From the NCBI GenBank assembly GCA_041288095.1, contig JBGGMJ010000212.1:10415-74414 (forward strand): 64,000 bases of DNA. The letters are read 5' to 3'. Origin of the DNA: Myxococcota bacterium (lineage in GTDB: Bacteria > Myxococcota > XYA12-FULL-58-9 > JALHOP01). The position numbers and the translations under genes were made by a program. Shown piece by piece: positions 1 to 57,346 of this stretch. Numbering within the stretch: position 1 is the stretch's first letter; each line of letters opens with the position of its first letter. A model generated the notes under the pieces. It saw only the letters and a list, made by a program, of their open reading frames with translations. It searched no databases and was not told where the DNA came from.

Positions 1-420
1 CAACCGGCCCGCCTCGCCCTCAACCAGCTCGAGCGCTTCCTGCACCTCTCGGTCATCGATGCCGAGGAGTCGTGGCGCGCGGGCGACGAGGACGGTGCCG
101 CCGAGTTTCTCTCGGGTGCGATGCAATACCTACGGCAAACACACTTCGCGTTCTCACCGCTAACGCGAGGCTTCGAGCTCGTCTGCATGAAGCTCGGCCC
201 GCACTTCGACGGGCTCGCGGACGTGCACGGGCTCCAAGAACGCGTGCTCGCGCATCTCCGCGCCACCGGCGCGGCCGAGGACGAGATCCGGCGTTATTAT
301 CTGCCCTTCATCACGGTGCTGCTGACGCGAAACGTCGAGGCAACCTCGGCCCTGGTCGCGCCGATAATAGACAACGACGATGACGATAAGCGGGGTACCG
401 TCCGAGCTCAGACCACCTAG
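1..420 (+). CDS. hypothetical protein, 5'-truncated by window edge
   Basis: Frame of ORF 121..420 is open back to position 1 (QPARLALNQLERFLHLSVIDAEE...); GC3-rich codon usage. Confidence 0.6.
   Translation, partial: QPARLALNQLERFLHLSVIDAEESWRAGDEDGAAEFLSGAMQYLRQTHFAFSPLTRGFELVCMKLGPHFDGLADVHGLQERVLAHLRATGAAEDEIRRYYLPFITVLLTRNVEATSALVAPIIDNDDDDKRGTVRAQTT
340..367 (+). promoter_or_regulatory. sigma28/FliA-like promoter motif GCAAC-N15-GCCGATAA
   Basis: Perfect FliA -10 element GCCGATAA at 360-367, 12 nt before ATG 380. Confidence 0.7.
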
Positions 421-1666
421 CGGCACCCGTGCCGGCATCCAGGCCACTGTCGAGGGTCTGGAGCGTGGTCGCGTTACCCAGCAGCAACGCCCCCTCCCGG
501 AGATCGCCCAGCGCCTGCTCGTCGATGCCCTGAACGAGCGCGCCGCTCGAGACGGTGCGCTCACCGACAAGGCAATCAGCGACGCCTGGCAAACCATTCG
601 CCACTCCTTCCGCTTGGACCCGCGGCGCAAGGAGAGGACGCCAATCGGCCTGCAATCGTTCGGCTTCCTCGCGGCCCGCTATCTGGGCACGGGTGGCCCG
701 GTCACCGCCGAGCGCTTGCGCGCCATCGATCGCCAGAATCAGGAGCCCATGCGCTTGGCCGCGGCGCCTCGGCTTTCATGGGGTATCGGCGAGTCGAAGC
801 ACATCATCGACATCGCACGCGACGCGCTCGGGGCCAGTCGCGCTCTCGATTTTCTGACGCTTTGGGAGAGCTGGACCGGCACCTCCGTCGGTGACCGCGT
901 GAGCCCGGACACCTCGACCCGTACGCAACAGCGGACATTCACGCGCATCGCTTGGAAGGACAAGCTCGACACCAAGGATATGCTCCGCGTCTTGCGCGGC
1001 GAGGTCCTCGTCATGGAGAACCCCCGCACCAAACAGCTCGACTTCGTGGCCCGCGAGCACAACACGCTCGACATCTTGCTGGCGGCGTGGTCACTCGGGC
1101 GCTCGATGCCGGACAAGATCCTGCATTTCGACCGACACTCCGACTACACGAACGACGTCGACGGAGCCGCCTTGGGGCCAAGGCACCTCGCAGGCTTGCC
1201 GCAAGCAGCGGTCTGGTGGTCGCTCCTCGACGTCATCAAACGGCCAGACGGAGAAACGCCGCTCGCCGACCCCAATCGGGACGTGGCCTTCGTCACCCAC
1301 TTGAGCCCCGAGGAGCGGGAGAGGAAGCTCACCGGCGCGCGCAACTCACCCCTGAAGCCCCGCGACACCAGATGGACCCGCGTCGCCGAGCACATCGGGT
1401 CCGCTCCAGCGGACTTCGTGTCCTACGACCTCGATCTCGTCATGCCGTCCGACCAGATGCGCGTCGGCCAGGAGATGTTACGCGACCCCCGCTTCCAGGA
1501 AGCCATGCTGGCCGCGACGACACGGCTCTTCGTGGTCTCGCCGCAGTTCTCCGGAGGCGGCGATGAAGTTGACGCCCAGCACGCCACGCACTCGCCCGCG
1601 ACTTACACCCGCGTCCTCAACGTCATCCGCCGCGCCGGCGTCAGCGCGGATCGATCTTCGTCGTAG
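380..1666 (+). CDS. UPF0489/arginase-deacetylase-superfamily domain protein with long N-terminal extension
   Basis: C-terminal half has AREHN, ILHFDRHSDY and VSYDLDLV motifs, typical of the metal-binding DxHxD / DxD sites of this superfamily; no signal peptide. Confidence 0.6.
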   Translation: MTISGVPSELRPPSGTRAGIQATVEGLERGRVTQQQRPLPEIAQRLLVDALNERAARDGALTDKAISDAWQTIRHSFRLDPRRKERTPIGLQSFGFLAARYLGTGGPVTAERLRAIDRQNQEPMRLAAAPRLSWGIGESKHIIDIARDALGASRALDFLTLWESWTGTSVGDRVSPDTSTRTQQRTFTRIAWKDKLDTKDMLRVLRGEVLVMENPRTKQLDFVAREHNTLDILLAAWSLGRSMPDKILHFDRHSDYTNDVDGAALGPRHLAGLPQAAVWWSLLDVIKRPDGETPLADPNRDVAFVTHLSPEERERKLTGARNSPLKPRDTRWTRVAEHIGSAPADFVSYDLDLVMPSDQMRVGQEMLRDPRFQEAMLAATTRLFVVSPQFSGGGDEVDAQHATHSPATYTRVLNVIRRAGVSADRSSS

Positions 1667-2483
1667 CGTCGAACGGAAAAGGAACGACGCCGAACCCCGT
1701 GTCGACGTCCGTGTGCCCGCGCAAACGGACCGGTACCGCCTGCTTGCTCTGCAAGGTCTTCATCAGGGCGAGTCCCACCTGCAATGTCGACACGTCGGCG
1801 CTGAGCGTGCGCACCGAGGAACCGAAGATCTTCCCCGCCGCCGGCATGGTGCCCTTCAGCACTTCCTGGCCGGCAAGCGAGACGTCGTGGTTGAGCGCGC
1901 CAATGGCGAGAGGATGGCCGCCGTTGCTCTTCATCTCGACGTCCACATCGACGTGAATGCTGGTGAACGACGCGTTGCCCACGCGAACGGCGACCGGCGT
2001 GATGCTCGGCGGCCGCAAGACCGGCAGCGCCCCGTCACGCTCGAACGGCAGCGCGATCGGTTGATCGGCGACCTTGATGTAGGCTGTGCCGGCGATCTTC
2101 CACGGCAGCTCGTCAGGAATGCCCTTCTTCGCGGTGAGCCGGTTCGCGATTTCGCTCCAGCGGACGACTGCGGGAATGATCAGTGTCGTCGTCTTGCCAG
2201 GCCCGAGGTCGAGCGCCTTGTCGACCTTGCCGTCGGCGAGGGTGACACCGTCGACCACGAGCTTCATGTCGTAGCCGTCGAGGCGTCCGCCGATGCGGTT
2301 CGGGTTCTTCACCGCGAAGGCGATGTCACAGTGCAAGGCGTCGAAGTCCACGGCGCGGTAGTTGACGGTGTCGAACTGCACCTCGGGCGGCTGAATGCCC
2401 GTGACCGCCGAGAGGCCTTGGAGAGCGGCGCAACCGGCGCCGATGAGACAAGCCGTCGACAGCAATAGCGAGAAGCGTTTCAT
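1641..2483 (-). CDS. LEA type 2 (WHy) domain lipoprotein, two tandem domains
   Basis: MKRFSLLLSTACLIGAGC lipobox-like signal; VKNPNRIGGRLDGYDMKLVVDG LEA_2 signature; start trimmed from ORF 1641..2912. Confidence 0.8.
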   Translation of the reverse strand: MKRFSLLLSTACLIGAGCAALQGLSAVTGIQPPEVQFDTVNYRAVDFDALHCDIAFAVKNPNRIGGRLDGYDMKLVVDGVTLADGKVDKALDLGPGKTTTLIIPAVVRWSEIANRLTAKKGIPDELPWKIAGTAYIKVADQPIALPFERDGALPVLRPPSITPVAVRVGNASFTSIHVDVDVEMKSNGGHPLAIGALNHDVSLAGQEVLKGTMPAAGKIFGSSVRTLSADVSTLQVGLALMKTLQSKQAVPVRLRGHTDVDTGFGVVPFPFDATTKIDPR

Positions 2484-2529: not shown

Positions 2530-4404
2530 CTAGCGTGCCTCGGGCCCGCGTAAGGATTGCGCTTGCGGCCAGGTCTCGATCCAGCGCGACAGCGGCTTCC
2601 AGATGGCCTCCTGCGCGCGTAGCCGGCCGCTCGCGACGTGATGCTCCGGCCCGAAGGTGACGACGGGTTGGCCGTCACGCAGCACCGGACGGCCACGACG
2701 GTCTCGGCGAATGGTGTACTCGACGACGCCGTTCCTCGGATCACGTCTGTCACGCTCGAACTGTGCCTCGAGACGGCGCGCCGCGGCTCGCGAATGGATC
2801 GCCTCCATGATCTCCCCGTTAACCTCGGCCGACAGCAAATCCATGTTCGACGAGCCGATGAGCCCAACTTCACCGTCGGCAACCAACGTCTTGGCGTGCA
2901 TACGCTGATCACCGGTCAACACGAAGACGCGCAGATTGGGCACACGCGCCAGGAGCCGAGGCCACTCGCGCATGAAGAAGGCGGCGTACAAGGGGTTGTC
3001 GGCGGTGGTCGGGCTGTCGGTCAGGATGGTGATGCGCACGCCGCGGCGCCCCGCCGCGGCGAGGGCGCGCCGTACCCGTTCGCTGAGGACGATGTAGGGA
3101 TTGGTGATGACGACACGGTCGCGCGCCGCGGCGAGGAGGCGCTCGATGCTGGGCTCGATCTGATCGAAGGCATGCGGGGCCGCGGCGTTCGAAGTACGGT
3201 CGAGCGCCTTCACGCGGGCGTCTTCCATGTTCGCGTCGATGCGGAAGCCACGGTTCGCGCCGGCGAGGTCGGCGTTGGCGGCGAGCTCGAGGGCGCGGCC
3301 ATGGAGGTTGCCGAGGGCGAGCTCACCCACGTCCACGCGACGGCGGCGCAGATCTGCCCGCGCGGCCCGCACCATCTCGGCGGCGTAGTGCTCACGCACC
3401 GCCGGCTCCGTGCGCAACCGCTGCCGCATCGCCTGCGATAGCGGAGCGCGGTTCAGCCAGTGGTCCATCATGGCGGCGGCGCCCAGCAGCTCGGCCTCGC
3501 GCGACACCAAGTTGCCGTACATGTCGGGTGTGATCCGATGGTTCAGATCGTCTCGCTCCATCTCGACAGTGACGGCCCGGCGCAGTTGCGCGGCCGCTTC
3601 GGCGCCATCGACCACCACGTCGCTATCGCGGAACGGCATGCCCAAGTCGCGGCGCGAGCTGTAGTACTGGTGCCCGATGTTGCGGCCACCGGTGATACCG
3701 TAACGCTCGGTGACGAGGATCTTGTCGTGGTTGGCGGCGGCGAGCGCCAAGTCGCGCTCGGCGATGACTCGTGGAACCTTGCGGTAGTACGGATTGTAGA
3801 CCGAGACGTTGGCGCCGGCCGCGACCAACTCTTGCAAGTAGTCCTGGCCGCGCAGACTCGAGGTGAAGCCGGTGCGGCCGAAGCTATCTCCGGCCGCGTC
3901 GACGACGGCGTTCACCGGGATGTCGTTGCGGCGGTGACGCAGCAGCTGCCCCAGAAAGGCGTGCCCGAAGACGTCGCGGTCGAGGATGAAGTAGCTCACG
4001 TCGACGCGGCTTCGAGCCGAGCCCAGCACGTGCCAAGTCGCGAGCCAGGCCTCGTTGTTGTCGTGCAGAGCGCGGACCCTGGCATCCACGCCTCGTCCCG
4101 GGAGGGCATCGAACGCGCGCGCAATCGAGCTGCGCGGGCGTGGTGCGTCGCGGCCCGGCTCCACCGGCGGCGCAAGCCCGGTCACCGCCGCGGGAGCCAC
4201 CCCGCGGGCGGCACGTTCGGTCTCACGGGGCGGGGCCGGCGCGCGCGCGTCTGGCGGCACCGGAGTCGGGATCGGGGCCGTAAGGGGAGTTTCCACCGTT
4301 TCGGCGGCGCGCGGGGGTGCCTTCGCCGGGACCTGGAGTCTCGGCGCAGAGGTGCCTTCCGGATGGCGATACAATCCGGACCACAGCGGGCGCTCTTGTG
4401 ACAC
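2530..4404 (-). CDS. phospholipase D family protein (cardiolipin synthase-like), Pro-rich N-terminal tail
   Basis: Two HKD-type motifs: NHDKILVTE...GGRNIG and MHAKTLVAD...GSSNMD. Confidence 0.9.
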   Translation of the reverse strand: MSQERPLWSGLYRHPEGTSAPRLQVPAKAPPRAAETVETPLTAPIPTPVPPDARAPAPPRETERAARGVAPAAVTGLAPPVEPGRDAPRPRSSIARAFDALPGRGVDARVRALHDNNEAWLATWHVLGSARSRVDVSYFILDRDVFGHAFLGQLLRHRRNDIPVNAVVDAAGDSFGRTGFTSSLRGQDYLQELVAAGANVSVYNPYYRKVPRVIAERDLALAAANHDKILVTERYGITGGRNIGHQYYSSRRDLGMPFRDSDVVVDGAEAAAQLRRAVTVEMERDDLNHRITPDMYGNLVSREAELLGAAAMMDHWLNRAPLSQAMRQRLRTEPAVREHYAAEMVRAARADLRRRRVDVGELALGNLHGRALELAANADLAGANRGFRIDANMEDARVKALDRTSNAAAPHAFDQIEPSIERLLAAARDRVVITNPYIVLSERVRRALAAAGRRGVRITILTDSPTTADNPLYAAFFMREWPRLLARVPNLRVFVLTGDQRMHAKTLVADGEVGLIGSSNMDLLSAEVNGEIMEAIHSRAAARRLEAQFERDRRDPRNGVVEYTIRRDRRGRPVLRDGQPVVTFGPEHHVASGRLRAQEAIWKPLSRWIETWPQAQSLRGPEAR

Positions 4405-4410
4405 GAACCG

Positions 4411-4438
4411 TCATCGGCAGAAGTCGGTCCCTAGTTGT
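4411..4438 (-). promoter_or_regulatory. sigma28-like promoter motif ACAAC-N15-GCCGATGA
   Basis: Intergenic, 6 nt before the GTG start of the PLD gene. Confidence 0.6.
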
Positions 4439-4468
4439 CGAGACCGACCCGGGAGACGTGCCAATTGG

Positions 4469-23400: not shown

Positions 23401-24019
23401 AGGTGGGCGCTTGCGGCAAGCGCTCGTCGACCGCGAAGCTCACCTGGACGCGCGTGCCGCCGCTGATGGCGCTCACCTCCGCGAGGGGATTGGTGGCGCG
23501 GTCGGGCGTGAGCTCGAGCAGCGTGCTGCCGTCGATGATCGTCGCCGGTGTGAAATCGATGACGATGCTGGGCAGGATGACGGTGTTGGTGTTGCCGACG
23601 AGGTCGAGGATCTCGGCCGTGGTCGTCTGCGCGCCCTCGGTTTCGTCGCCAGCGGTGGTGTACGCGAAAACGTACAAAGGGGTATCAGCAGCGGTCGCCG
23701 CGACCCGCGTGAAGGCGCGCACCGCGCCGTTGCTCGTGAACCTGACCACCGGGTCGATGAGCAATGGCTCGCTCACCGTCATCGTCAGGGTGATCGTGCG
23801 CCCCGCCCCCACGGCATCGGCATCGTATGCGGCGTCGACGACCACGGGCGCGGTGGAGTCGTCGCTCGACGACGGCACGCAGAGCCTTGCGTTGTTGCAG
23901 TGGAAGCCGTCCGGACAGGCGCCGTTCTCGCAGGTCACGAGGACGTTCTCGGGCAACGCCAGGTCGACCGAGCAAGCGCAGAGCAATACGGCAGCGACGA
24001 GGACGACGCGGCGGGCCAT
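20483..24019 (-). CDS. giant lipoprotein: Cys-rich N-terminal module, Ig-like domains, kelch-like (xTWxWDG) repeats
   Basis: LLCAC lipobox; DAAGN Ig motifs; repeated TWLWNG/VWEWDG/TWSWDG/DTWTWDG. Confidence 0.85.
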   Translation of the reverse strand: MARRVVLVAAVLLCACSVDLALPENVLVTCENGACPDGFHCNNARLCVPSSSDDSTAPVVVDAAYDADAVGAGRTITLTMTVSEPLLIDPVVRFTSNGAVRAFTRVAATAADTPLYVFAYTTAGDETEGAQTTTAEILDLVGNTNTVILPSIVIDFTPATIIDGSTLLELTPDRATNPLAEVSAISGGTRVQVSFAVDERLPQAPTLAFGSALTLPMEQLSATVFAFDRVWVAGDLVDGTYDVIATLTDAAGNVSDVTLALAGDATPRGFVIDSVPPAPPAVDQPGVISLRRAPWARVSTTPALPSTAVVGVASGVEAGARVVAYPQASLPACASATCRFSSYALAVGTADATGAFALDLGSLDRQRVYIAAVDDAGNASDLDVSTAGLQVSRVRDGVLDIAFAGEEGNPNAFTLTDTFPPLLGDIVDSPADGADVATIDAAVVATTGGFTWLTSDIPAAPAVSALEPPAATHPRLGQLVALTGEMALLDNVGLRTINPSPAPALDMNGVRLAYDLASDAILYYGGGLGGAGQYNRTWLWNGAQWRRVCTATSCVDASPRRRQRFALASDPNRRVVVLVGGQVVEPSEPDKALYVWEWDGNAWTAKCTDAACNDPVAGNGPDPGILPTATFDPHLNEVLLLTASTTESQTWSWDGTRWLRRCVGCASTPPPRAGASMTYDGAHDEVVLYGGTAVVCSSSFRFDTWTWDGSAWTLRSDPSGLPGAMLRGMAYDPRRRQVTMFGGHQPICGPGTPPSETDSQWDWDGQTWRRRRGVGQRDLVALGYDPVHASLFGESADGDVRWNGVEWTEPDYPTVGAVGALVRSSYAAGARLVFFDGSSTRTLEPAGWQFRCVGAASCGLPLPASSYSIASDGVNATFAGGRDGSNADILGVWRFNGTSWTSVCASCGSHIGSVMVYGGAPGELYSIVGSTTPLSPAFLHRFSGGGFTLSDALPGTSFIVYSAAIFDSHRNAFSWVGGGTPGSMGSLTPRTTFQYHGAAGWQAQPPLSLPSEPMPAVQPLAGLVAGYDDGLAQTVILPGDGSYTVTYSGAADRPAHILSMPIGESIETAGFSLADFDLDWYGTATSDDHGVAVTDVTTWVWNVDRWTDVQATMVAPGHWRATVSAATFGVNGRLDRLQVGAERRITAAITPRATNGQSTAGASLTTDAVGVTFHYRLD

Positions 24020-24055
24020 GGGGTCCCGCGAGTCTACCCGACACCCGCGATGGAA

Positions 24056-24083
24056 GCGACGCGCTCTCACCAGGAGCCGATAA
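24056..24083 (+). promoter_or_regulatory. sigma28-like promoter motif GCGAC-N15-GCCGATAA
   Basis: Perfect -10 element 9 nt before ATG 24093. Confidence 0.7.
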
Positions 24084-24092
24084 GGGCCCGCT

Positions 24093-25502
24093 ATGAAAGT
24101 CTGGCTGGGCCCTACCCCCACCTCATTCCGCGCCCAAAGCCCGGCGAACGCACGTCCCGCCGAGCCATCGATCCGGCGTCAATCCGCGCGCGCGTGGCCT
24201 GATGGGCCGACGAAGCCGGCTCAGGCCTTTGCACGCCGCCGGCCTGACGGGGCGAGCTACCTCGACGCCGCCAAAGTCGCCGAGCTCTTCGGCGAGCTGG
24301 CGCCGCGTCTACCGGCGGAGCTCGCGAAGTCTCTCGAAACACCGCGTATCGATCCACGTTGGTGGGCATGTCCGGCGCCGAAGACCATCGCCACGGTCAT
24401 AGGCACGGACGCATTCAGCAGCGGCAAGTCGCCGTGGCTCCTCGCCTCGCGGGCGGCGTTACCCGAGGGATTGCCGGACGACCTGCGGAGCTACCTCACC
24501 CCCGTGCCCGAGGGGCAGCATTGGCGGTCGGGTTACTTTCCCGTTTTAGCGGACGGGAGGCAAAGCATGGGCGCCTTCGTCGCGCTCCTGCCGCCGAGCT
24601 TCGACGCGGCGAACCCCGCGAAGTCGATCGAGCGTATCGTGCTCACCATCGGCAGCGGCGACAACCGCGCACGCAGCGCCCTCGGTGAGCTTGCCGGCTA
24701 CGCGGCGCCCGGCACCCTCTTCGTCTCGGTCGATATGCAGGCGCTCTCGGTCGGCATGAAGTCCCCCGAGAGCCCAGGTCAGATCGCCTTGCAGCAAGGC
24801 GTCGCCTACGTGCGACGCACCTTGGGTCTTACGGACGCGGTCCCGCAGTACCTCGCCGGCTTCTCGGCGGGCGGCGCCGCCGCCTTGGTCCAAGCCTTCC
24901 AGAGCTTCCCTGGCCTCAAGGGCGCCGCCGCCCTCGCGCCGGTGATCATGCAGTGGAACGTTCACACGCGAAAGTCGCCGGTGCCCGTGACCATCCCCGA
25001 GGAAGCGCCCGGCGATCACTTTGCCCGCACCGCCGCGAACGGCCAGCCGGCAATCGAACGCACCTTCACGGTCGCGAGCAATGTCGTTCGCGCTTACACC
25101 AGCGAAGAAGACTTCGCGGAGCTCAGCCCACAGCGTCATCTCGCGCGTGGCGAGATGCCGAAGGTGCCGCTCCTCATCACCGGCGGCACCGCCGACCTCA
25201 TCGCCCAGCCGGTGGTGTCCTCCGCCGCGGAGCTTGCTTCGTTCAACAAGGGGCTCACGATTCCCGTGGTCTTTGGTCCCTCCGACGACCAGGCCGGCCG
25301 CGTCATCAACATCGAAGGTTTCGCGCGCGCCTTGAGCACACAACCAGGCGTCGCGGTGGTCACGTTGCGCGATGTCGGCCACCAGATCGCGGCGCCCGTG
25401 AAGCGCCCAGACGGCGCCAGCTGGAACATGGATATGCGCGACCTGATGCTGCGCTTCTTCAAAGGCCTCGAGGCCGCGCGAAGCAACACCAGCACCGTAT
25501 AG
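24093..25502 (+). CDS. alpha/beta hydrolase with low-complexity N-terminal tail
   Basis: Nucleophile elbow AGFSAGG; ITGGTADLI (Asp); DVGHQI (His). Confidence 0.8.
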   Translation: MKVWLGPTPTSFRAQSPANARPAEPSIRRQSARAWPDGPTKPAQAFARRRPDGASYLDAAKVAELFGELAPRLPAELAKSLETPRIDPRWWACPAPKTIATVIGTDAFSSGKSPWLLASRAALPEGLPDDLRSYLTPVPEGQHWRSGYFPVLADGRQSMGAFVALLPPSFDAANPAKSIERIVLTIGSGDNRARSALGELAGYAAPGTLFVSVDMQALSVGMKSPESPGQIALQQGVAYVRRTLGLTDAVPQYLAGFSAGGAAALVQAFQSFPGLKGAAALAPVIMQWNVHTRKSPVPVTIPEEAPGDHFARTAANGQPAIERTFTVASNVVRAYTSEEDFAELSPQRHLARGEMPKVPLLITGGTADLIAQPVVSSAAELASFNKGLTIPVVFGPSDDQAGRVINIEGFARALSTQPGVAVVTLRDVGHQIAAPVKRPDGASWNMDMRDLMLRFFKGLEAARSNTSTV

Positions 25503-25509
25503 CCGATAC
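25483..25509 (+). promoter_or_regulatory. sigma28-like promoter motif GCAAC-N14-GCCGATAC
   Basis: 30 nt before ATG 25540. Confidence 0.6.
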
Positions 25510-25539
25510 ACGGGACCCACCCTCTCTGGGCCCCAATCC

Positions 25540-27204: not shown

Positions 27205-27205
27205 A

Positions 27206-28066: not shown

Positions 28067-28074
28067 GATGTCGA

Positions 28075-28102
28075 GTATCCGCAGGAAAATATCGGGAGTT
28101 GC
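28075..28102 (-). promoter_or_regulatory. sigma28-like promoter motif GCAAC-N15-GCGGATAC
   Basis: Intergenic, 8 nt before GTG 28066. Confidence 0.5.
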
Positions 28103-28127
28103 GTACGCCGCTACCGAACCCGCGGCA

Positions 28128-28580: not shown

Positions 28581-28654
28581 GCACCCGCATTTAGCAAACC
28601 CGTGGGGGGTCGAGCACGCCGCCGTGTCGGAGCGAGTCACCCGCGCCTTTTGAC

Positions 28655-28681
28655 GAAACTTTGGCGGGCCATAGCCGACGT
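28655..28681 (+). promoter_or_regulatory. sigma28-like promoter motif variant GAAAC-N14-GCCGACGT
   Basis: Intergenic, upstream of RBS AGGAG and ATG 28704. Confidence 0.45.
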
Positions 28682-28703
28682 ACTCCGGCGAGGAGATCGC
28701 CCC

Positions 28704-30929: not shown

Positions 30930-30977
30930 CGCACAGCAGCGTGTGCCGTGAGGGCACAGCGTCTCCGAGCGTGTGTC

Positions 30978-30985
30978 GCCGATAA
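30978..30985 (+). promoter_or_regulatory. sigma28-like -10 element GCCGATAA
   Basis: Intergenic, upstream of RBS GGAG / ATG 31022; -35 element not clearly matched. Confidence 0.5.
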
Positions 30986-31021
30986 GCTCGGCTCACACCG
31001 CCGCGTAAATTGGAGACCTCT

Positions 31022-31408
31022 ATGACCTCGGAAATCAACTTCACTGGCCGCAGCGCACCGCGTGGCATCGTCGCCCCCGGACCGCGCGTCCAGCTCGGCA
31101 TCAAGCAGGGCGATAGCTTTCAGATTCGCCCCGGCGAGCCGCTCTACGTGTTCGTCCCACTGACCGTTGGCACGAATTTCAGCTTTGCACAGATGGAGAA
31201 GAGCGCTTTCTCCATCGGTCCGTCGCAGATGCCGCCAGGAGTCGGCACCCCCCGGATCGCGGGCGAGTGGTTCCAGATTTCAATGACGCCCGGCGTCCGC
31301 GAAGGCACGCGCGAAGAAGTGCGCCTGCAGACGAAGGCCACCCCGGAGGCCGTCGCGCACACGGCGCTGACGTTCACGCTGGTCACCGGCGGTCGCCGCT
31401 TCTACTAG
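31022..31408 (+). CDS. hypothetical protein (beta-rich)
   Basis: RBS GGAG; ORF fills the gap; no signal peptide. Confidence 0.6.
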   Translation: MTSEINFTGRSAPRGIVAPGPRVQLGIKQGDSFQIRPGEPLYVFVPLTVGTNFSFAQMEKSAFSIGPSQMPPGVGTPRIAGEWFQISMTPGVREGTREEVRLQTKATPEAVAHTALTFTLVTGGRRFY

Positions 31409-31412
31409 AGCG

Positions 31413-31952: not shown

Positions 31953-32005
31953 GAACGGACTCCAGATGAAGGCCGAAAAACGGTAAAAATGTAGGGAGCG
32001 CCTAA

Positions 32006-32033
32006 TCATCGGCGCATGGGCCCGCCTGGTGCG
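32006..32033 (-). promoter_or_regulatory. sigma28-like promoter motif CGCAC-N15-GCCGATGA
   Basis: Intergenic, oriented toward gene 31413..31952. Confidence 0.5.
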
Positions 32034-32088
32034 CGGGAACCGCGATCCGTGCCACCTAGGTTACAGCTCCAGCGTCGGTCACAATTCC

Positions 32089-32116
32089 GCGACGAACCGG
32101 CAACGTTTGCCGATGA
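32089..32116 (+). promoter_or_regulatory. sigma28-like promoter motif GCGAC-N15-GCCGATGA
   Basis: Intergenic, upstream of the four-gene operon starting at 32209. Confidence 0.6.
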
Positions 32117-32208
32117 ATTGACCCGCTAGCGGCTTCCCCATCCAGTCGCCGGTCCTCACCCACAACTCAAGGCCACGCCGCATCAAGCGATGAGCTCGAG
32201 AGGTTCAC

Positions 32209-33585: not shown

Positions 33586-34925
33586 TGACCACCATGCAAC
33601 CCGTAGGCAGCAACACCGTCGTCGCCCGCATCAACGAGGAGCCACCCGTCGGTGGCACCGGGCCGTACAACCCGAACCCGCCGTTCGCACCCGGCCAGAT
33701 CGCGAGCGCTCCGGCGCCGAAGTGGACGCCGATCATGCAGCGCCCCGCCGCGGAGCTCGGGCTGCAAGCACCGGCTCAGCGCAGCGTGCGCGATAGCGTA
33801 CAGACCATCGCCGCGGCCGCCGCGGGCCCGAGCGACGCTTTGCCGATCAACGTGCAGAGCAGCCGGCCCTACCCCGAGCTCGGCGTCAGCGTGCAGACGC
33901 TCGCCAGCGGTCTGAACTCGGTGTGGAGCATGGCGTACGCCCCGAACGGCGACGTCTACTTCACCGAGCGTCCGGGCCGCGTGCGCCTGATCCGCGACGG
34001 CGTCGTCCAGCCGGAGCCGGTGATGAGCCTCCAGGTCGGCGGTGGCGAAGGTGGCCTCTTGGGCATGGCCCTCGACCCGAACTTCGCGCAGAACCGCAAT
34101 GCTTACCTGTACTACACGGCTTCGGGAAACCGTGAGAACCGCGTGGTCCGCGTCACTCTCGGCGCCGATGGCCGCAGCGCTGGCCCCGAGACCGTGCTGG
34201 TGTCCGGCATTCCCGCCGCGGGCAACCACAACGGCGGTCGCATCGCCTTCGGTCCCGACGGCAAGCTCTACATCACCACTGGTGATGCGGGCCGCGCTCA
34301 GAATTCGCAGTCGCTTGGCTCGCTCGCCGGCAAGATCTTGCGCGTCAACAGCGATGGCACCGCCCCCAGCGACAACCCGTTCGTAGGCCGCGAAGGCGCC
34401 GACGCGCGCATCTGGAGCTACGGCCATCGCAATCCGCAGGGGCTCGGCTGGAACAGCCGTGGCGATCTGGTGGCGAGCGAGTTCGGATCGTCGGCGAACG
34501 ACGAGATCAATCTGATCCGGCCCGGCAGCAACTACGGCTGGCCGAACGCCGAAGGCGATAGCCACGCTCCGCCCTTCACGCCGCCGCTCGCGCACGCCGG
34601 CCGCGGTCCGAGCTGGGCGCCATCGGGCAGCACCTTTTTGACCAGCGACAAGATTCCGCAATGGCGGAACAACTATTTCATGTCGATGCTCGGCTTCAGC
34701 GCCGGCGCCGCTCGCGGCGTGCAGCGCTTCGAGATCGACGAGAACAACGTCGTGCGTCGCCAGCAGAACCTGTTCCGCGACGACTTCGGTCGCGTGCGCA
34801 GCGTGAGCCAGGGTCCCGACGGCTATCTCTACATGACGACAAGCAATCTCGACGGCCGTGGCCCACGGCTGCCGGAAGGCGATCGGATCCTCCGCATCGT
34901 CCCGCTCGAGCGCGCTTCGAACTAA
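33585..34925 (+). CDS. PQQ-dependent sugar dehydrogenase (glucose/sorbosone DH, GSDH) (copy B1), Pro-rich tail instead of signal peptide
   Basis: GEGGLLG, HNGGRIAFGPDGKLYITTGD, GHRNPQG, DEINLIRPGSNYGWP; TAATG overlap with the upstream gene. Confidence 0.92.
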   Translation: MTTMQPVGSNTVVARINEEPPVGGTGPYNPNPPFAPGQIASAPAPKWTPIMQRPAAELGLQAPAQRSVRDSVQTIAAAAAGPSDALPINVQSSRPYPELGVSVQTLASGLNSVWSMAYAPNGDVYFTERPGRVRLIRDGVVQPEPVMSLQVGGGEGGLLGMALDPNFAQNRNAYLYYTASGNRENRVVRVTLGADGRSAGPETVLVSGIPAAGNHNGGRIAFGPDGKLYITTGDAGRAQNSQSLGSLAGKILRVNSDGTAPSDNPFVGREGADARIWSYGHRNPQGLGWNSRGDLVASEFGSSANDEINLIRPGSNYGWPNAEGDSHAPPFTPPLAHAGRGPSWAPSGSTFLTSDKIPQWRNNYFMSMLGFSAGAARGVQRFEIDENNVVRRQQNLFRDDFGRVRSVSQGPDGYLYMTTSNLDGRGPRLPEGDRILRIVPLERASN

Positions 34926-41995: not shown

Positions 41996-43162
41996 ATGAC
42001 TTCGTCCCCAGTTCGGCTCGATACCGTCGAGCGGCTGGCCGTCCATGCACCTCCCACAGCGCGCGCCCACTTGCCGGCTCTCACAGCGGCGCGCTTCATC
42101 GCCGCGTTCCAGGTGCTGCTCTTCCACTGCACCAACTGGTCGACGTGGTTGCCTTCGCCGGTGCGAACGTTCGCCTCGACCGGCTACATCGCCGTCGCCT
42201 TCTTCTTCATCCTCTCCGGTTTCATCCTGACCTACACCTACTGGTCACCGATGCGCGCCGGCCTGCGCCTCGGGGTGTTCTACAAGGCGCGCTTCGCCCG
42301 CATCTACCCGATGTACATGGCCGCCCTGCTGCTGGCGTTGCCGTTTTACGCGAAAGCGGTCATGCACGGGCACGGTGGCGCGGCGCGCGGCATCCGCGAC
42401 GCGTTGCTCACCGTGAGTCTCCTACAGGCACACGTACCGAGCGCGGCGCTCACCTGGAATCCGCCGGCGTGGTCCTTGTCGACGGAAGCGTTCTTCTATT
42501 TCTGCTTCCCGTTCGTCTTGCCGGTGCTGCTGCGCGGCTCGATGCTGCGCGCCTGGCTCACCGCTGTCGTCGCGGTCATCGTCGCGGTGGCCCTGCCGAT
42601 AGCGTACCTCGCGATCAATCCCGACGGCATCGGCAGCCCCGATTTCGAGGCGAGCGCGACCTGGCTCAACCTGCTGCGCTATCACCCGCTCGCGCGTTTC
42701 GCCGAGTTCCTCTTGGGCATGTGCGTGGCTCGCGCCTATCTCGACCAACCATCGCTGCGCACACCACGCGCGGCCATGCTGCTGACGGCAACCTCACTCG
42801 CGACGCTGGCTGGGCTGCTCGCTTTCGCGGACCATATTCCCTACGTACTCTTGCACAACGGACTACTCGCGCCGGCGTTCGCCGCCCTGGTGCTCGGGCT
42901 CGCGACGACCACCGCCATCTCGAAGCCTTTACAACGTCGTTGGCTCGTCACGCTCGGCGAGGCCAGCTACGGGCTATACATCCTGCACATCCCGCTCTTC
43001 ATGGCCGCGGGCGCGGTGGCTCGCAAGATCACCGAAGACGGCGACAAGAGCGGCTGGTTCACGCTGGCATTCATCGCCTTCGCGATAGCGATCTCGGCCG
43101 TCGCCTACCGCATGGTCGAAGTGCCGGCGCGCCGCTTTCTGCTCAAGCGTTCCGTCAGGTAG
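41996..43162 (+). CDS. acyltransferase family 3 (OafA-like) membrane O-acyltransferase
   Basis: LPALTAARFIAA, AVAFFFILSGFIL, RFARIYP, WSLSTEAFFY, LGEASYGLYILH. Confidence 0.92.
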   Translation: MTSSPVRLDTVERLAVHAPPTARAHLPALTAARFIAAFQVLLFHCTNWSTWLPSPVRTFASTGYIAVAFFFILSGFILTYTYWSPMRAGLRLGVFYKARFARIYPMYMAALLLALPFYAKAVMHGHGGAARGIRDALLTVSLLQAHVPSAALTWNPPAWSLSTEAFFYFCFPFVLPVLLRGSMLRAWLTAVVAVIVAVALPIAYLAINPDGIGSPDFEASATWLNLLRYHPLARFAEFLLGMCVARAYLDQPSLRTPRAAMLLTATSLATLAGLLAFADHIPYVLLHNGLLAPAFAALVLGLATTTAISKPLQRRWLVTLGEASYGLYILHIPLFMAAGAVARKITEDGDKSGWFTLAFIAFAIAISAVAYRMVEVPARRFLLKRSVR

Positions 43163-44795
43163 GCTGGGCGTCGCGCTCGCGAACGCGCACCCGATGCACG
43201 GCGTCTGCTAGTGCTCGTGCGTCTTCCTCGCGGATCCGCGCGGCGAAAACGGCGCGCAGACGAACGACGCTGATGGCGTTGTAGCCGCCCTGGCCGTTGC
43301 TCAAATACGTGCGCAAGACCGCCAGTTGCTCGTCACGCGTAAGCTCGGAGAGGCGACGTAGCCTGCCGTCGGCGCTCAAGAGGGCTTGGTAGGCGGCCGG
43401 GTGCTGCTCGCGCAGGTCGTGAGTAAGGAAGAGCTCATCGGCCGCGACCGCATAGCCTATGCGCTCGAACAGACGGTCCCCGGCGTAAGCACCGTCGCCG
43501 AGTATCGCACGCACCTGCTCGGTCATGTACCCCAGCGCGAGGCGAGGGTTGACCATCTGGTCCAAGGCGATGGCGCTCGCCGAAAAAGGCTGCGATTGCG
43601 TCGTGAGGTCCAGCATCGCGAAGCGCCAAGAAGGCGAATAGCGCTGCACCGCGAGCACGGACTCCAGAGCCAGCTCGCCTTCGCGGACATTGCGGCGCTG
43701 TCCCAGGGAAGCCGCATAGAAGCCGCTCTGGGTCCGAACGATGTCACGGAAGTGCGCGTAGGCGACGTGTTGATAGACCTCGATCGGATAATCACCGGCG
43801 GCGCGCTCACGTAGGAAGCGAGCGTGCGTCGCGGGCGCCGATGCGACCTGCGCGAGTAACCGATCATAGGCGGTGTCCAGGTCGGCGCGGTGCGCTTCGC
43901 GCAGGCCACGCAGCTGAATCGCGTCGGTGTTTGTGAGCGGATTGACGCGGCCTTCCGTGCCTGGCCGAACACCGAACTTCCAGGTCTCGGCGAACCGCAG
44001 CACCCGCTGGCGCAGGAAGACATCGTCGATGACGACGCCATCGGGCCCCATCGCGAAGTGGCCAGGGAACTCACGCTGGAAGAATCCCGCGTAGTAGCTG
44101 TCGACGCCGTTCATCACCGGCGTCGTGTAGATCCAGCGAACGTCGCGCGGCGGCAGATTGAAGAACGACACGCGGTCGCTCTCACTTTGCTCGCGGGCGG
44201 TGGCTTGCAGATCGAACGTGTGGGGCGAGTTCGGGAAGATGATTGGCCGCACTGTCATGCCGTGGCGCGTTCGCAGGTCGCCCAAGAACTGGGCGTCCGA
44301 GAGAGCCGCCGCTAAAGCGTACACACCCGCCTCATCGGTAACGCGCTCCGGGACCGGAGTCGCCGCGCTGCCGTTGCCGAAGTGGTGGCGAAACGCGTCC
44401 AGCCTCTCCTGCAGCGCCGGGTAGTAGGCGCCCTGCTCGTAGGGCCGCGAGACGTAGTGGTCGTAGACCATGAAAACGAGGTCGCGATAGGCGCGCAGCG
44501 GCGAGCCGCGCTCGTTCATACGGGCGTTGTCAGCGGCCCAGGGGCGGTAGTCCAGCAGATAGGCCGGGCTGCGCAGGAGCTCGGGATCCATGCTCAGCGC
44601 CGGGGCGCTCTCGCCCGGGCCCCCCGGCACGGCAAGCTCGAGCTGCGGGTTCGGCACCCCCTGCACTCTGAGGATGTGCGGTCTCGAGCTCATGCCGGTG
44701 CGAGGTGCAAGGACGGGTGCCGAGCGCGCTGGCGCGGCATATTCAGGCGCGACAGGGGCGGCGCGGCCAACGGCTTCGATTGCAGGAACTGTCAT
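43155..44795 (-). CDS. hypothetical protein, paralog of 55679..57286
   Basis: Colinear similarity, e.g. ERAAGDYPIEVYQHVAY vs ERAAGDYPAEVYQHVAY; start MTVPAIEAVGR chosen by analogy to the paralog. Confidence 0.85.
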   Translation of the reverse strand: MTVPAIEAVGRAAPVAPEYAAPARSAPVLAPRTGMSSRPHILRVQGVPNPQLELAVPGGPGESAPALSMDPELLRSPAYLLDYRPWAADNARMNERGSPLRAYRDLVFMVYDHYVSRPYEQGAYYPALQERLDAFRHHFGNGSAATPVPERVTDEAGVYALAAALSDAQFLGDLRTRHGMTVRPIIFPNSPHTFDLQATAREQSESDRVSFFNLPPRDVRWIYTTPVMNGVDSYYAGFFQREFPGHFAMGPDGVVIDDVFLRQRVLRFAETWKFGVRPGTEGRVNPLTNTDAIQLRGLREAHRADLDTAYDRLLAQVASAPATHARFLRERAAGDYPIEVYQHVAYAHFRDIVRTQSGFYAASLGQRRNVREGELALESVLAVQRYSPSWRFAMLDLTTQSQPFSASAIALDQMVNPRLALGYMTEQVRAILGDGAYAGDRLFERIGYAVAADELFLTHDLREQHPAAYQALLSADGRLRRLSELTRDEQLAVLRTYLSNGQGGYNAISVVRLRAVFAARIREEDARALADAVHRVRVRERDAQPT

Positions 44796-44842
44796 GAAAC
44801 GTAGCCCTCGCCCTTTTCCTCGTTGGAGGCTCTTCGCTTCCA

Positions 44843-44869
44843 TCATCGGCCATCCGTGGCCCGGGTTGC
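44843..44869 (-). promoter_or_regulatory. sigma28-like promoter motif GCAAC-N14-GCCGATGA
   Basis: Intergenic, upstream of ATG 44795. Confidence 0.6.
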
Positions 44870-44894
44870 GGGAAACGTCGCGCGGCCCTAGCTA

Positions 44895-51395: not shown

Positions 51396-51434
51396 GCGGA
51401 CTCCTCGTAGTGCCAGCGTGGCTCAGGGCCCCGC

Positions 51435-51461
51435 GAAACGGGCCCCCTTACCCCGCGATAA
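51435..51461 (+). promoter_or_regulatory. sigma28-like promoter motif variant GAAAC-N14-CGCGATAA
   Basis: 8 nt before ATG 51470. Confidence 0.4.
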
Positions 51462-51469
51462 CCGGTTCC

Positions 51470-52051
51470 ATGAACCAGGCAATCGCGACTCCAACCGGCC
51501 AGGGTATCGCCCTCGCGGGGCTAGCGACCGAACATCTGCCAGCGACCGTACCGCCGGGTCCCGGCGAGCCGCTTCCTCCGCCAAAACCTTCGTGGCTGCA
51601 AGACGTCATGGCGAGCGACGCCGGCGTCGGCCTCAAGCGTTGGATGAACGGCATTGGCGCGGGCCTCGGGTACATCGCACCGGCCGCCATGGTCCTCGGT
51701 AGCGCCTACTACACGAGCCACATGCCCGGCAGCTACAGCGACGTCGCCACGGCAGCCGCGGTCGTAAGCATCGGTGGCAGTGTCTTACAGGCCGTCTATC
51801 AGGGTTGGGACGGCGACGGCGCCATCGATACCTATCGCAAAGCGCAACACCCGAACCCGCGTTGGGCGAGCTTCCGCGATGTCATGGGCTACTTCGCGCT
51901 CCCGGCGATTGTCGCGAGCACCCTCGTCGGCGCCTTCGTCAGTCCAGGCCTAGGCATCGCCGCGGGTACCATCACGGCGCTCGGCGGCATGAGTCTCGCC
52001 CTGACGACGCACTTCTACAGGATAGAGAAGTACGGCAGCCGCGACCTCTAG
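51470..52051 (+). CDS. hypothetical membrane protein with Pro-rich N-terminal tail
   Basis: MNQAIATPTGQG...PPGPGEPLPPPKP followed by about four Gly/Ala-rich hydrophobic segments. Confidence 0.65.
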   Translation: MNQAIATPTGQGIALAGLATEHLPATVPPGPGEPLPPPKPSWLQDVMASDAGVGLKRWMNGIGAGLGYIAPAAMVLGSAYYTSHMPGSYSDVATAAAVVSIGGSVLQAVYQGWDGDGAIDTYRKAQHPNPRWASFRDVMGYFALPAIVASTLVGAFVSPGLGIAAGTITALGGMSLALTTHFYRIEKYGSRDL

Positions 52052-55245: not shown

Positions 55246-55679
55246 GGAGCTTTGCCGGCCCGCGCCCGCTCGACCAGCGACCGCAACAGAACGCCGCTCC
55301 CCGACAGCTCCGACTCGAACCACATAAGGGCGTCATCGATGCTGGCGTGCGTCGAGCGCACGACACCGGCGCGTGCCGGAGCGAGGAGCTGAATCGCCAT
55401 GTTGACGCCGCGTGCGATCGTGGACTCGGAGACGAAGGCGAAGCGCATTCGCGAGAAGCGATCGGCTCCGCCCGCGATGGCCCGCCGGTGGTTGTTACTC
55501 GGCGGACCGCTGTTGCCGACGTACATGAGGACGTGGGCGTCACGGTCGGTGCGCCGTTGCGCCAGGTCGCCGAACTCGTGGATGACGGAGACCAGCTTGG
55601 CGTAGTCCACTTGCTCGGCGCGGCCCAACAGCATCGCGACCAGCGACAGACCCGGTTCGTCGTAGGCGTAGCCCAACAT
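55242..55679 (-). CDS. hypothetical STAS/SEC14-like small protein
   Basis: PPSNNHRRAIA...FAFVSESTIARGV...DDALMWF pattern; TGATG coupled to the upstream gene. Confidence 0.6.
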   Translation of the reverse strand: MLGYAYDEPGLSLVAMLLGRAEQVDYAKLVSVIHEFGDLAQRRTDRDAHVLMYVGNSGPPSNNHRRAIAGGADRFSRMRFAFVSESTIARGVNMAIQLLAPARAGVVRSTHASIDDALMWFESELSGSGVLLRSLVERARAGKAP

Positions 55680-57286
55680 CAGCGTTGGGGCACTCTCGCA
55701 CGATGAATGACACCAGCCAAGTGCCGCAGATCGTCTTCACGGATGCGCGTCGTGAGCACCGAGCGCATGCGCACGACGCCGGTCGGGCTCGTCGTGCCGT
55801 CGGCGTTCACCATGTAGCGGCGAAGGAGGCGGACCTGATCGGCGCGCGGTAGGTCGGCGACGCGACGCAGCGAACCGTCGCTCTGCAGCAGCTCGCGATG
55901 GATCTCGGGCTGGTACTCGCGAAGGTAGCGTGGCTCGAACAGCTCGTCCGCCAGAACGGCGTAGCTCATCCGCTCGTAGAGAGCTTCGCTCGCGTAGACG
56001 TCGTCACCCAGGATCGCCTTGAGCTGCTCGGCGACGTAGGTGAAAGCGAGCACCGGATCGGCCATCTGGTCGATGACGGCGGCGCGCGCGAAGATCGGCT
56101 GCGATTGCGAGGCCAGCTCGGTGAGCAAGAAACGCCACGCTGGCGTGTAACGTTGCAGCGTCAGCATCGATTCGAGGGCCATCTGCCGCGCGCTAGAGTC
56201 CGGCCGCTCCGCCAAAGCAAGCACGTAGAAGCTGCTCTGCAGACGCGCCATCTCTCGCAAGTGCGGGTAGGCGACGTGCTGGTAAACCTCGGCTGGATAG
56301 TCGCCGGCCGCGCGCTCTCGCTCGAAGCGCGCCCGCACCTCGGCGTCTCCAGCGACGCGCGGGAGGAGGCGCTCGTAGGCGGCGTCGAATTCGCCGCGCA
56401 GCTCTTCGCGCATGCGGCGGTACTGAAGATCGTTCGCATCCGAGATGGGATGCTCGAGCGGTTCGCCGCTGTTCATGTCAATCGAGCGTTTCCAGGTGTG
56501 CGCGAACGCCATGGCGCGGTCACGTAACAACCAATCGTCGACGACGACTCCTTCGCGGCCCATCGCGAAAACCCCGGGGAAGCTGCCGCGCTCGATGCTC
56601 GCCCGATACGAATCGAGTCCGCGCTGGACCGGCGTCGCGAAAGTCGTGTGCACTTCGCGCGGCCGCATGTCCCAGACGGCGACGGTGCGCCGATCCGTCT
56701 CGACGCGCCGGCTCATCAGGAGGTCGAAGGTGCGCTGGGAGTTCAAGAAGGTGACCGGCTGGACGTCGAAGCCGTAACGCGCTCGCATCGCTTCGATGAC
56801 GGCCGGGCTCGTGAGCACATCCGCGATAGCCTGCATCTCGAGGTCGTCGTTCACGCGCTCGGGCAAGGTGCAAACCGGCGCGTCCCCAGCGCACAGATGA
56901 CGTCGCAGCTCGGCGAGCTTGGTGTTGAAGTCCGCGAGGCCTCTCTCGCCACGCGGTCCTTCGAGGGTCCGCTCGTAGAGGGCGATGGTCAGCTCGCGAA
57001 AGGCACGCGCCGCGGTCCCGCGCTCGGTGACGGCGTCGAAGTCGCGGACCCAATCGGTGTAGTTGACCAGCAGCGCTGGGCTGTGTGCCATCGACGGATC
57101 GGGCACGAACGGCTGGGGCTCGGGGAGCGTGAGCCCGGCATTGGGGGCGCCGCCAACGGCCAGGGCGTGCGCGCGTGTCGACATGCCGACACGCGGCGAG
57201 CCGCCCGGAACGGTCGACATGGGGACGTCGACACGCACCGCCGCGCCGGACGGGCGGCCAAGGGACTCAATCGAGGGAATTGGCAT
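55679..57286 (-). CDS. hypothetical protein, paralog of 43155..44795
   Basis: Colinear similarity across the folded region; low-complexity N-terminus MPIPSIESLGRPSG. Confidence 0.85.
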   Translation of the reverse strand: MPIPSIESLGRPSGAAVRVDVPMSTVPGGSPRVGMSTRAHALAVGGAPNAGLTLPEPQPFVPDPSMAHSPALLVNYTDWVRDFDAVTERGTAARAFRELTIALYERTLEGPRGERGLADFNTKLAELRRHLCAGDAPVCTLPERVNDDLEMQAIADVLTSPAVIEAMRARYGFDVQPVTFLNSQRTFDLLMSRRVETDRRTVAVWDMRPREVHTTFATPVQRGLDSYRASIERGSFPGVFAMGREGVVVDDWLLRDRAMAFAHTWKRSIDMNSGEPLEHPISDANDLQYRRMREELRGEFDAAYERLLPRVAGDAEVRARFERERAAGDYPAEVYQHVAYPHLREMARLQSSFYVLALAERPDSSARQMALESMLTLQRYTPAWRFLLTELASQSQPIFARAAVIDQMADPVLAFTYVAEQLKAILGDDVYASEALYERMSYAVLADELFEPRYLREYQPEIHRELLQSDGSLRRVADLPRADQVRLLRRYMVNADGTTSPTGVVRMRSVLTTRIREDDLRHLAGVIHRARVPQR

Positions 57287-57318
57287 GCGTCGGACCCAGG
57301 GTCCTGGGCCCGAGCTGA

Positions 57319-57346
57319 GCTTCGGCGGGAGGAGCCGGAAGGTTGC
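57319..57346 (-). promoter_or_regulatory. sigma28-like promoter motif GCAAC-N15-GCCGAAGC
   Basis: Intergenic, 32 nt before ATG 57286. Confidence 0.5.

Follow-up and report, generated by a model that had tools for sequence, protein, structure and literature searches.

The window considered here, a stretch of 64,000 nt from a Myxococcota genome (G000:C212:10415-74414, i.e. contig C212 of assembly G000), carries a dispersed bipartite motif resembling a sigma-28 promoter ahead of genes with no flagellar role, and raises the question of which sigma factor reads this motif and what the genes behind it have in common. The initial annotation of the window had proposed that a sigma-28-type factor with an altered -35 element (CAAC) controls a scattered non-flagellar set of genes, possibly hundreds genome-wide. 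This proposal is supported by about 375-430 sites in the genome, by their sigma-28-like -10 element and spacing, and by a sigma factor with a changed recognition helix. We consider it likely that the motif is read by this factor, here called sigma2, a sigma-28 paralogue belonging to the gene cluster of a type III secretion system of the needle-less kind (T3SS*). The further idea that the products of the regulon lacking export signals are substrates of this system is tentative and has somewhat less than an even chance.

Occurrence and promoter character of the motif

Assembly G000 (5.85 Mb in 212 contigs, about 67% G+C, 90% complete) was annotated with a purpose-written codon-usage gene caller, which returned 4958 genes covering 93% of the DNA, their start codons being approximate. 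The motif was described by a two-block weight matrix refined on intergenic hits of the whole genome, with the caveat that the training genome is also the scored genome, and has the consensus cGCAAC-N14/15-gCCGATA(a/c). It is the strongest upstream signal genome-wide, and an unbiased k-mer count over the genome found CCGATA in all the top-enriched 8-mers upstream of genes. Intergenic DNA, which represents 7% of the total, holds 402 of the 1440 copies of CCGATA, and CAAC stands exactly 15 or 16 nt upstream of 128 of these 402 copies versus 10 of the 1038 intragenic ones.

At a threshold of 16 bits the matrix retrieved 418 hits, 362 of them intergenic and 338 with a co-oriented start within -30..250 nt. 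The spacer of these strong sites measures 14 nt in 283 cases and 15 nt in 135, their commonest -10 octamers are GCCGATAA (54), GCCGATAC (39) and CCCGATAA (23), and their -35 pentamers are mostly GCAAC (260), followed by ACAAC (48) and GCACC (40). The distance from the -10 block to the start codon peaks at 0-60 nt. Intergenic hits of at least 15 bits number 375, while five Markov shuffles averaged 11.2 and the reversed sequence gave 8; a scan of the genome against shuffled and intragenic controls thus places the motif upstream of starts well above the background level. Within the window itself, GCCGATRA occurs 23 times for 5.8 expected and CAAC-N14/15-GCCGAT six times for 0.53 expected, two of the six copies being intragenic (7403 and 37867); none of 100 shuffles reached either count.

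Six orthologous promoters of the window, those preceding 24093, 25540, 28066, 28704, 31952 and 32209, could be followed in the three congeneric genomes, where the -35 and -10 blocks are kept while spacers and flanks drift. Judged by this conservation and by its promoter-like position and orientation, the motif is a real promoter class. Its extended -10 is of the GCCGATAA type expected of sigma-28 promoters, and its -35 is not the TAAA(G) of this family; intergenic TAAAG-type sites are only four in G000. A housekeeping promoter was also considered and rejected, since genes of the same regions for ribosomal proteins, SecA, Lon, RF-1 and EPSP synthase are without the motif.

A second -35 class, sought among the CGAT(A/G) sites devoid of GCAAC, was not found; these sites gave only a heptamer periodicity, with GATA, CCGA and ATAG recurring at 7-nt steps in intergenic DNA of G000, a pattern suggestive of a CCGATAG-like heptamer repeated in tandem in part of the intergenic regions.

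The candidate sigma factor and its type III secretion cluster

The initial annotation had called for a FliA/WhiG-family factor and an inspection of its region 4.2. The FliA_WhiG model (TIGR02479, cut-off 189.6 bits) detected two near-cut-off proteins in G000, one of which has a changed recognition helix. The first, sigma1 (C127:21744-22571, 275 aa), scores 166 bits and is directly followed by an 80-aa FlgM-like gene (PF04316, 31.3 bits for a cut-off of 25; pair C127:21744-22853). This pair is conserved in G005, and the FlgM-like gene, the sole one found, adjoins sigma1 and not sigma2. No regulon of sigma1 was found in G000, given the four intergenic TAAAG-type sites. The second protein, sigma2 (C92:35188-36072, 294 aa), lies outside the window and has FliA_WhiG as its best-scoring family.

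In the sigma-28 open complex of Pseudomonas aeruginosa, according to PMC12784957, S224 and Q228 make the -35 base contacts, recognition of the extended -10 falls to R97, and the -11A is captured by D66 and Y76. Alignment of sigma2 to this protein (PDB 9wsm_F) gives D118, F128, R134 and R149 as the equivalents of D66, Y76, R82 and R97; all four are invariant in 21 orthologues, so that the aspartate, the aromatic residue and both arginines of the -10-reading set are retained. The -35 helix differs: the serine is kept, R225 is replaced by W and Q228 by R, and the base-reading set of FliA is therefore incomplete. The resulting helix, SKSW(T)SRLH, does not vary among 21 sigma2 sequences, whereas FliA has SESRVSQLH, and both flagellar FliA and sigma1 (TDSRVCQLH) keep the S-R-x-x-Q pattern. 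As far as residues can tell, the pattern of sigma2 fits a promoter whose -10 is that of sigma-28 and whose -35 is new, and we propose that sigma2 would read GCAAC instead of TAAAG because its -35 recognition helix changed clade-wide.

The gene of sigma2 is the last of a four-gene operon, after genes for a 185-aa protein, a 138-aa TPR protein and a 159-aa protein. This operon is kept in 20 of the 20 relatives fetched, single genes going undetected in some, and in most relatives it is directly upstream of sctI-sctJ-fliG. The TPR protein has the size of class II T3SS chaperones. Searches of PDB sequences with the 185-aa and 159-aa proteins returned nothing meaningful. The 185-aa protein (C92:37386-37943, minus strand) has a Gly-rich middle, and the likeness of its C-terminus to needle or inner-rod proteins is an impression to which PDB and Pfam gave no support.

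On the same contig, C92:600-24182 (minus strand) encodes an SctI-like protein, SctJ, a FliG-like protein, FliH/SctL, SctN, YscO, a FliK-like protein, FliM/N, FliO, FliP, FliQ and FliR, and the FlhB and FlhA (FHIPEP) genes of G000 are located on other contigs. The export apparatus, the ATPase complex and the sorting platform that define the 'Myxo' or T3SS* type are thus all represented. Secretin, needle and translocon were not recognised by Pfam in the C92 cluster, where several genes have no family; secretins were not searched genome-wide. A 19.3-bit motif stands at the head of this cluster, and others occur ahead of the flhA/sctV region and of the gene that follows flhB. The initial annotation had evoked the flagellar export gate: a type III operon does carry the motif, but the gate concerned is most likely that of a needle-less non-flagellar T3SS (NF-T3SS) rather than a flagellar one. 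Between flhA/sctV and an 18.2-bit motif lies an open reading frame of about 80 aa (C31:5400-5700, minus strand), which starts about 47 nt past the -10. The FliG-like gene (C92:21671-22693, minus strand), directly after sctJ and kept in relatives, has weak hits to FliG_M, FliG_N and FliG_C; it is a flagellum-like feature inside an NF-T3SS.

Association of the motif with this locus extends to relatives across the phylum, which were compared along with the four genomes of the genus (G000 and G001-G003). A motif of at least 13.5 bits precedes sctI or sctJ in 12 of 30 loci belonging to several families (G000-G005, G009, G011, G014, G015, G019 and G023). It stands at the head of the sigma2 operon in G000-G002, G009, G014, G019, G025, G037 and G040, and exact matches adjoin sigma2 in G047, G054, G083, G087 and G117. 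In the 9-Mb genome G029, from another family, the T3SS cluster includes a sigma2 orthologue whose helix is QSKSWASRLH; its operon is headed by a motif of 22.8 bits, and the cluster has five to six motifs. In two further genomes of its family (genomes of 9-10 Mb) the motif likewise heads the operon, 1.5-1.6 kb upstream of sigma2. Between flhB and flhA of G029 (G029:C57:149700-151200), four motifs follow one another at intervals of about 450 nt, which would imply as many small genes with a promoter apiece.

A profile built from 21 sequences found sigma2, in one copy, in 89 of the 151 genomes sampled from the phylum. Strict matches to the motif, counted per genome and compared with a reversed-pattern control, amount to 59-91 in the genus and to 0-31 in the rest of the order; family f13 has 24 and 11, some genomes of f12 have up to 21, and the Myxococcaceae-like f17 is near background. 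A relaxed pattern gave 8-13 matches in f17 versus 0-2 in two genomes without sigma2. Since strict matches peak in the genus and fall elsewhere, the large regulon is a lineage-specific expansion.

Several observations weigh against the reading of the motif by sigma2. The protein scores 164.4 bits on FliA_WhiG, below the cut-off of 189.6, and the flagellar FliA of sister genomes score 214-215 bits. No motif of at least 13.5 bits, with our own matrix, precedes sctI-sctJ in 18 of the 30 loci, comprising one whole family (five genomes), G007, G010, G025 and ten others that are mostly distant or incomplete. Sigma2 was not found in G005, which is 97% complete and has 31 strict matches and a motif before sctJ, nor in G016. 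The 18 genomes of family f10, which are without sigma2, total 44 strict matches for 10 in the control, and because of this excess the reversed-pattern control must be held imperfect. The Myxococcaceae-like regulon looks small, and the highest motif counts (the genus and G005) coincide with the presence of sigma1. The gene starts, approximate as they come from our own crude caller, are a further caveat, and the sequencing runs that match positions 24000-33900 of the window are three soil-metagenome DNA runs from one study, none of RNA.

The coincidence with sigma1 lends itself to a rival explanation, in which sigma1, or sigma1 and sigma2 both, would read the motif and the expansion of the regulon in the genus would be due to sigma1. 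It is favoured by the FliA/WhiG-like score of sigma1, by its FlgM-like partner and their joint conservation in G005, and by the presence of sigma1 in all the genomes richest in strict matches, one of which (G005) shows no sigma2. We hold it to be improbable: the canonical helix of sigma1 predicts a -35 of the TAAAG type, no motif of at least 13 bits occurs near its gene, and the motif follows the sigma2 locus across many families. Moreover, close relatives of sigma1 (E<1e-50) are restricted to the genus, G005, G006 and G012, while six genomes without one (G008, G011, G015, G017, G019 and G025) have 16-24 strict matches, and G006 and G012 show the reverse, with sigma1 and only 3 and 6 strict matches. 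Even less credit, to the point of being very nearly negligible, is given to the view that the motif is a repeat element or a transcription-factor binding site and no promoter. Nothing specific supports it, apart from the periodic CCGATAG-like heptamer signal of other intergenic DNA; a bipartite structure with a spacer of fixed length and variable sequence, a strict orientation and distance to starts, a -10 exactly as in a known sigma family and a conservation limited to the two blocks all speak against it.

The flagellar FliA has to be weighed in the same manner. Neither flagellin nor rod gene was found in the G000 assembly, which has only one FHIPEP, whereas the flagellar cluster present in G001-G003 comprises flagellins, rod genes, a second FlhA and a FliA that scores above the cut-off; the flagellar cluster of G000 is either unassembled or lost. 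A FliA missing from the 90%-complete assembly could then read the motif as an enlarged flagellar class-3 regulon, in line with the sigma-28 consensus of the -10 and with the FliA of the sister genomes. This is highly improbable. The flagellin promoters of G001, G002, G005 and G008 are canonical (TAAAGGT-N11-GnCGATG), and TAAAG-type sites occur in the flagellar clusters of G001 and G002 (75 kb), where strong GCAAC sites are limited to two, close to the cluster ends. Conversely, G004, G010 and G015 display 21, 10 and 23 strict matches (controls 0-1) although neither a flagellin nor a FliA above the cut-off was found in them, sigma2 being the only FliA-family hit at E<=1e-30 in each of them, and the flagellated G024, G030, G032 and G038 have no strict match. 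Since the true FliA of sister genomes pairs with TAAAG-type flagellin promoters, the motif is not the promoter of flagellar FliA; for the same reason, the TAAAG-type flagellin promoters of the four relatives, sigma2 does not qualify as a flagellar factor driving flagellin. The suggestion of a sigma-28-type regulator consequently stands for the altered -35 and the non-flagellar gene set, with the refinement that the reader is not the flagellar FliA.

Regulon content and possible export

Sites of at least 14 bits lie within 250 nt of 429 genes, and the regulon amounts to about 375-430 sites or about 400 transcription units, i.e. about 8% of the gene total. Signal-less proteins, whose link to the motif had been noticed in the window, are associated with it genome-wide: using a hydrophobicity heuristic for the N-terminal stretch, rather than SignalP, a hydrophobic N-terminus was detected in 40 of 361 targets versus 1608 of 4328 other genes (Fisher p = 4e-27), and this bias is unchanged with unextended starts. 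Tat motifs are not enriched in targets (4 of 361 versus 89 of 4328). Protein families were compared between 144 of the 153 targets from the 40 target-richest 20-kb regions and 129 non-target controls drawn randomly from the same regions. No Pfam family was assigned to 102 of the 144 targets (71%), versus 43 of the 129 controls (p = 8e-10). Degradative enzymes, serpins or Fic account for 23 of the 42 annotated targets versus 5 of the 86 annotated controls; these 23 are ten peptidases, two serpins, four proteins of lipase/esterase fold, two nucleases/phosphoesterases, three lytic transglycosylases, a GH97 and a Fic protein. The other annotated targets include regulators, oxidoreductases and lipid-modifying enzymes, and the annotated targets of the window are a PLD protein and peptidases M64 and M13. 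The controls, which include ribosomal proteins, SecA, Lon and RF-1, do not carry the motif.

Most hydrolase targets are devoid of a signal peptide, among them an M4 thermolysin, an S8 peptidase, an Endonuclease_NS, LysM-PG_binding-SLT proteins and a lipase; one is present in a clostripain, a trypsin-like protein, a cytochrome c and a PSD protein. Relative to other signal-less proteins, P, S, Q and T are over-represented in residues 2-25 of the targets and D, E, K, F, Y and L under-represented, and cysteine is depleted along the whole proteins. Orthologues of the M4 protease keep their first eight or so residues (MA(D/E)P(L/I)xLN-like), after which about 100 residues diverge.

These features lead us to propose, from gene content and promoters, that the signal-less products may be T3SS* substrates. 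A competing view accepts the sigma2 promoter and sees in the regulon a physiological or developmental programme whose proteins are cytoplasmic or exported otherwise; it is itself somewhat unlikely, and only slightly behind. Many targets could indeed be cytoplasmic, such as S9, M20 and C26 peptidases, an intracellular-type polyhydroxybutyrate depolymerase, histidine kinases, Crp-like regulators, oxidoreductases, desaturases, a TPP enzyme and a GidA-like protein. About 11% of the targets have hydrophobic or lipoprotein-like N-termini, the search for an N-terminal sequence motif in targets gave none but a compositional bias, about 400 substrates would be unusually many, and the regulon seems small in Myxococcaceae-like genomes; these points tell against export. 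On the other hand, several targets, such as an M4 thermolysin with its FTP propeptide, an S8 peptidase, a non-specific endonuclease, LysM-PG_binding-SLT lytic transglycosylases, a class 2 lipase and serpins, make no sense in the cytoplasm of their producer, and yet lack Sec/Tat signals. The N-terminal bias and cysteine depletion also exceed those of other signal-less proteins, and the M4 protease is conserved at its extreme N-terminus.

The events behind such a regulon can be outlined as follows, with the reading of the motif by sigma2 as the starting point. Sigma2 would descend from the flagellar sigma-28 (FliA) family and would read the extended -10 GCCGATAA through retained sigma-28 residues, while its changed -35 helix would insulate it from the flagellar FliA of sister genomes. 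It would probably activate its own operon and the secretion apparatus and, in this genus, additionally drive about 400 transcription units, mostly for products without Sec/Tat signals; these predicted targets comprise many proteins of unknown family together with peptidases, lipases, nucleases, lytic transglycosylases and serpins. A FlgM-like checkpoint coupled to secretion could perhaps act on sigma2. In its fullest form, the earliest-branching NF type III system would have kept a sigma-28 regulator and re-aimed its -35, and the motif would mark T3SS* substrates released on prey contact under this FlgM-like checkpoint, a scenario that we put forward as speculative and rather less probable than its contrary.

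The FliA/FlgM class-3 regulon of E. coli, Salmonella and P. aeruginosa is the closest known counterpart. Both share the sigma family (best hidden Markov model), the GCCGATAA -10, a spacing of about 15 nt, the -10-reading residues, the vicinity of their genes to a type III export apparatus and the absence of Sec signals in the driven proteins. They differ in the -35 (cGCAAC versus TCTAAAG), in the W and R that stand for R225 and Q228 of FliA, in the score of sigma2 below the family cut-off, in the non-flagellar and apparently needle-less nature of the apparatus, and in regulon size and content, about 400 units of hydrolases and unknowns versus some tens of flagellar and chemotaxis genes. Chlamydia sigma-28 is also a FliA-family factor in cells without flagella, and both it and WhiG of Streptomyces are associated with TAAA-type -35 elements and small regulons. 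To our knowledge, neither is encoded within a T3SS cluster. Sigma2 resembles them as a FliA-family relative outside a flagellar role. In T3SS-coupled regulation of the Bordetella BtrS/BtrA type and by chaperone-dependent activators, secretion activity frees a transcription factor that acts on substrate genes. The small TPR protein of the sigma2 operon, with its class II chaperone size, recalls these systems. WhiG has been described in a programme without flagella (WhiG/RsiG; PMC8325347).

The apparatus itself corresponds to the needle-less T3SS* of Myxococcus xanthus, the 'Myxo' NF-T3SS of Abby and Rocha (2012), by its SctJ, SctN, SctL, SctQ-like FliM/N, FliO, FliP, FliQ, FliR, FlhB and FlhA; these authors placed the Myxo system between the flagellum and the injectisomes, and FliO is reported in Myxococcota NF-T3SS in the accessible portions of PMC12403147. 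Unlike in published accounts of the M. xanthus T3SS*, the cluster is here tied to a defined promoter class and to a candidate substrate set. In the accessible text of that literature (PMC12075869, PMC10849154, PMC12288465 and PMC3459982, of which the supplements may hold gene lists of the cluster), no sigma factor, promoter or effector of the cluster is described: PMC12075869 calls effectors 'potential' and names none, 'sigma' is absent from its main text and from that of PMC3459982, and PMC10849154 uses 'sigma factor' only for the motility regulator SigF. The literature search on myxobacterial T3SS, FliA, sigma-28 and SigF found no description of sigma2, its motif or its regulon.

Tied to the sigma factor of a T3SS* cluster, the motif would offer a sequence-only route to lists of candidate substrates, also for uncultured lineages. 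Its relaxed form is usable in Myxococcaceae-like genomes of 9-10 Mb, where it heads the same cluster, which would make the matter of T3SS* substrates testable in cultured model myxobacteria; for M. xanthus, PMC12288465 mentions start sites mapped by Cappable-seq. A retained FliA-type regulator with a changed -35 helix would represent a regulatory trace of the origin of the Myxo system, and sigma2 would exemplify the natural insulation of a duplicated sigma factor from its parent. If true, the motif would mark hundreds of signal-less lytic enzymes and novel proteins as substrates of a needle-less T3SS in this soil lineage. An alternative-sigma regulon of about 8% of the genes, with 71% of its sampled members devoid of a Pfam family, would be unusual in itself.

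Promoters of the window

All twelve sites quoted in the initial annotation are present upstream of the genes named and co-oriented with them (Table 1), as are the three exact GCCGATAA copies (360, 24076 and 30978), each ahead of a start codon. As a set, ten of the twelve score 13.5-23.6 bits, but those preceding 28704 and 31022 are weak, and the latter is a doubtful member of the regulon.

Table 1. Motif sites upstream of genes in the window, with their matrix scores and conservation within the genus
Site	Position	Strand	Score (bits)	Gene	Conservation
Promoter AGGCAAC-N15-GCCGATAAT	338..368	+	23.6	380-1666 (428 aa, no Pfam family)	
Promoter CGACAAC-N15-GCCGATGAC	4410..4440	-	15.6	2530-4404, PLD domain (PLDc_2)	
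Promoter AAGCGAC-N15-GCCGATAAG	24054..24084	+	17.3	24093-25502 (469 aa, unknown)	Both blocks kept in G002, spacer diverged
Promoter AAGCAAC-N14-GCCGATACA	25481..25510	+	21.3	25540-27204, signal-less Peptidase_M64	GCAACAC and TAGCCGATA kept in 4/4 genomes of the genus
Promoter ACGCAAC-N15-GCGGATACT	28074..28104	-	17.4	27206-28066 (286 aa, unknown)	CGCAAC kept in 3 genomes
Weak variant ACGAAAC-N15-GCCGACGTA	28653..28683	+	11.1	28704-30929, signal-less Peptidase_M13	Both blocks nonetheless kept in G001 and G002
GCCGATAAG -10 with poor -35 CAGCGTC	30956..30986	+	11.8	31022-31408	-10 kept only in G002
Promoter GCGCACC-N14-GCCGATGAT	32005..32034	-	16.9	31413-31952	Both blocks kept in 4 genomes
Promoter CCGCGAC-N15-GCCGATGAA	32087..32117	+	13.5	32209-33585 and downstream GSDH genes	Both blocks kept in 4 genomes
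Promoter CCGCAAC-N14-GCCGATGAT	44842..44871	-	19.2	43155-44795	
Promoter GCGAAAC-N14-CGCGATAAC	51433..51462	+	18.2	51470-52051	
Promoter GCGCAAC-N15-GCCGAAGCT	57318..57348	-	15.6	55679-57286, paralogue of 43155-44795	

The ATG of gene 380-1666, the top target of the window, is 12 nt past the -10 block, and a protein atlas look-up of its product gave sub-threshold leads only. An Rfam search of the window returned no family, and its tandem repeats have no relation to the motif. Between the divergent promoters of 31952 (minus strand) and 32209, just 5' of the latter, the sequence GTCACAATT (32078-32086, plus strand) is kept in 4/4 genomes of the genus and may serve both promoters as the binding site of a regulator. 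The motif-driven paralogues 43155-44795 and 55679-57286, both on the minus strand, have similar extreme N-termini (MTVPAIEAVGR and MPIPSIESLGR), followed by Pro/Ala-rich sequence.

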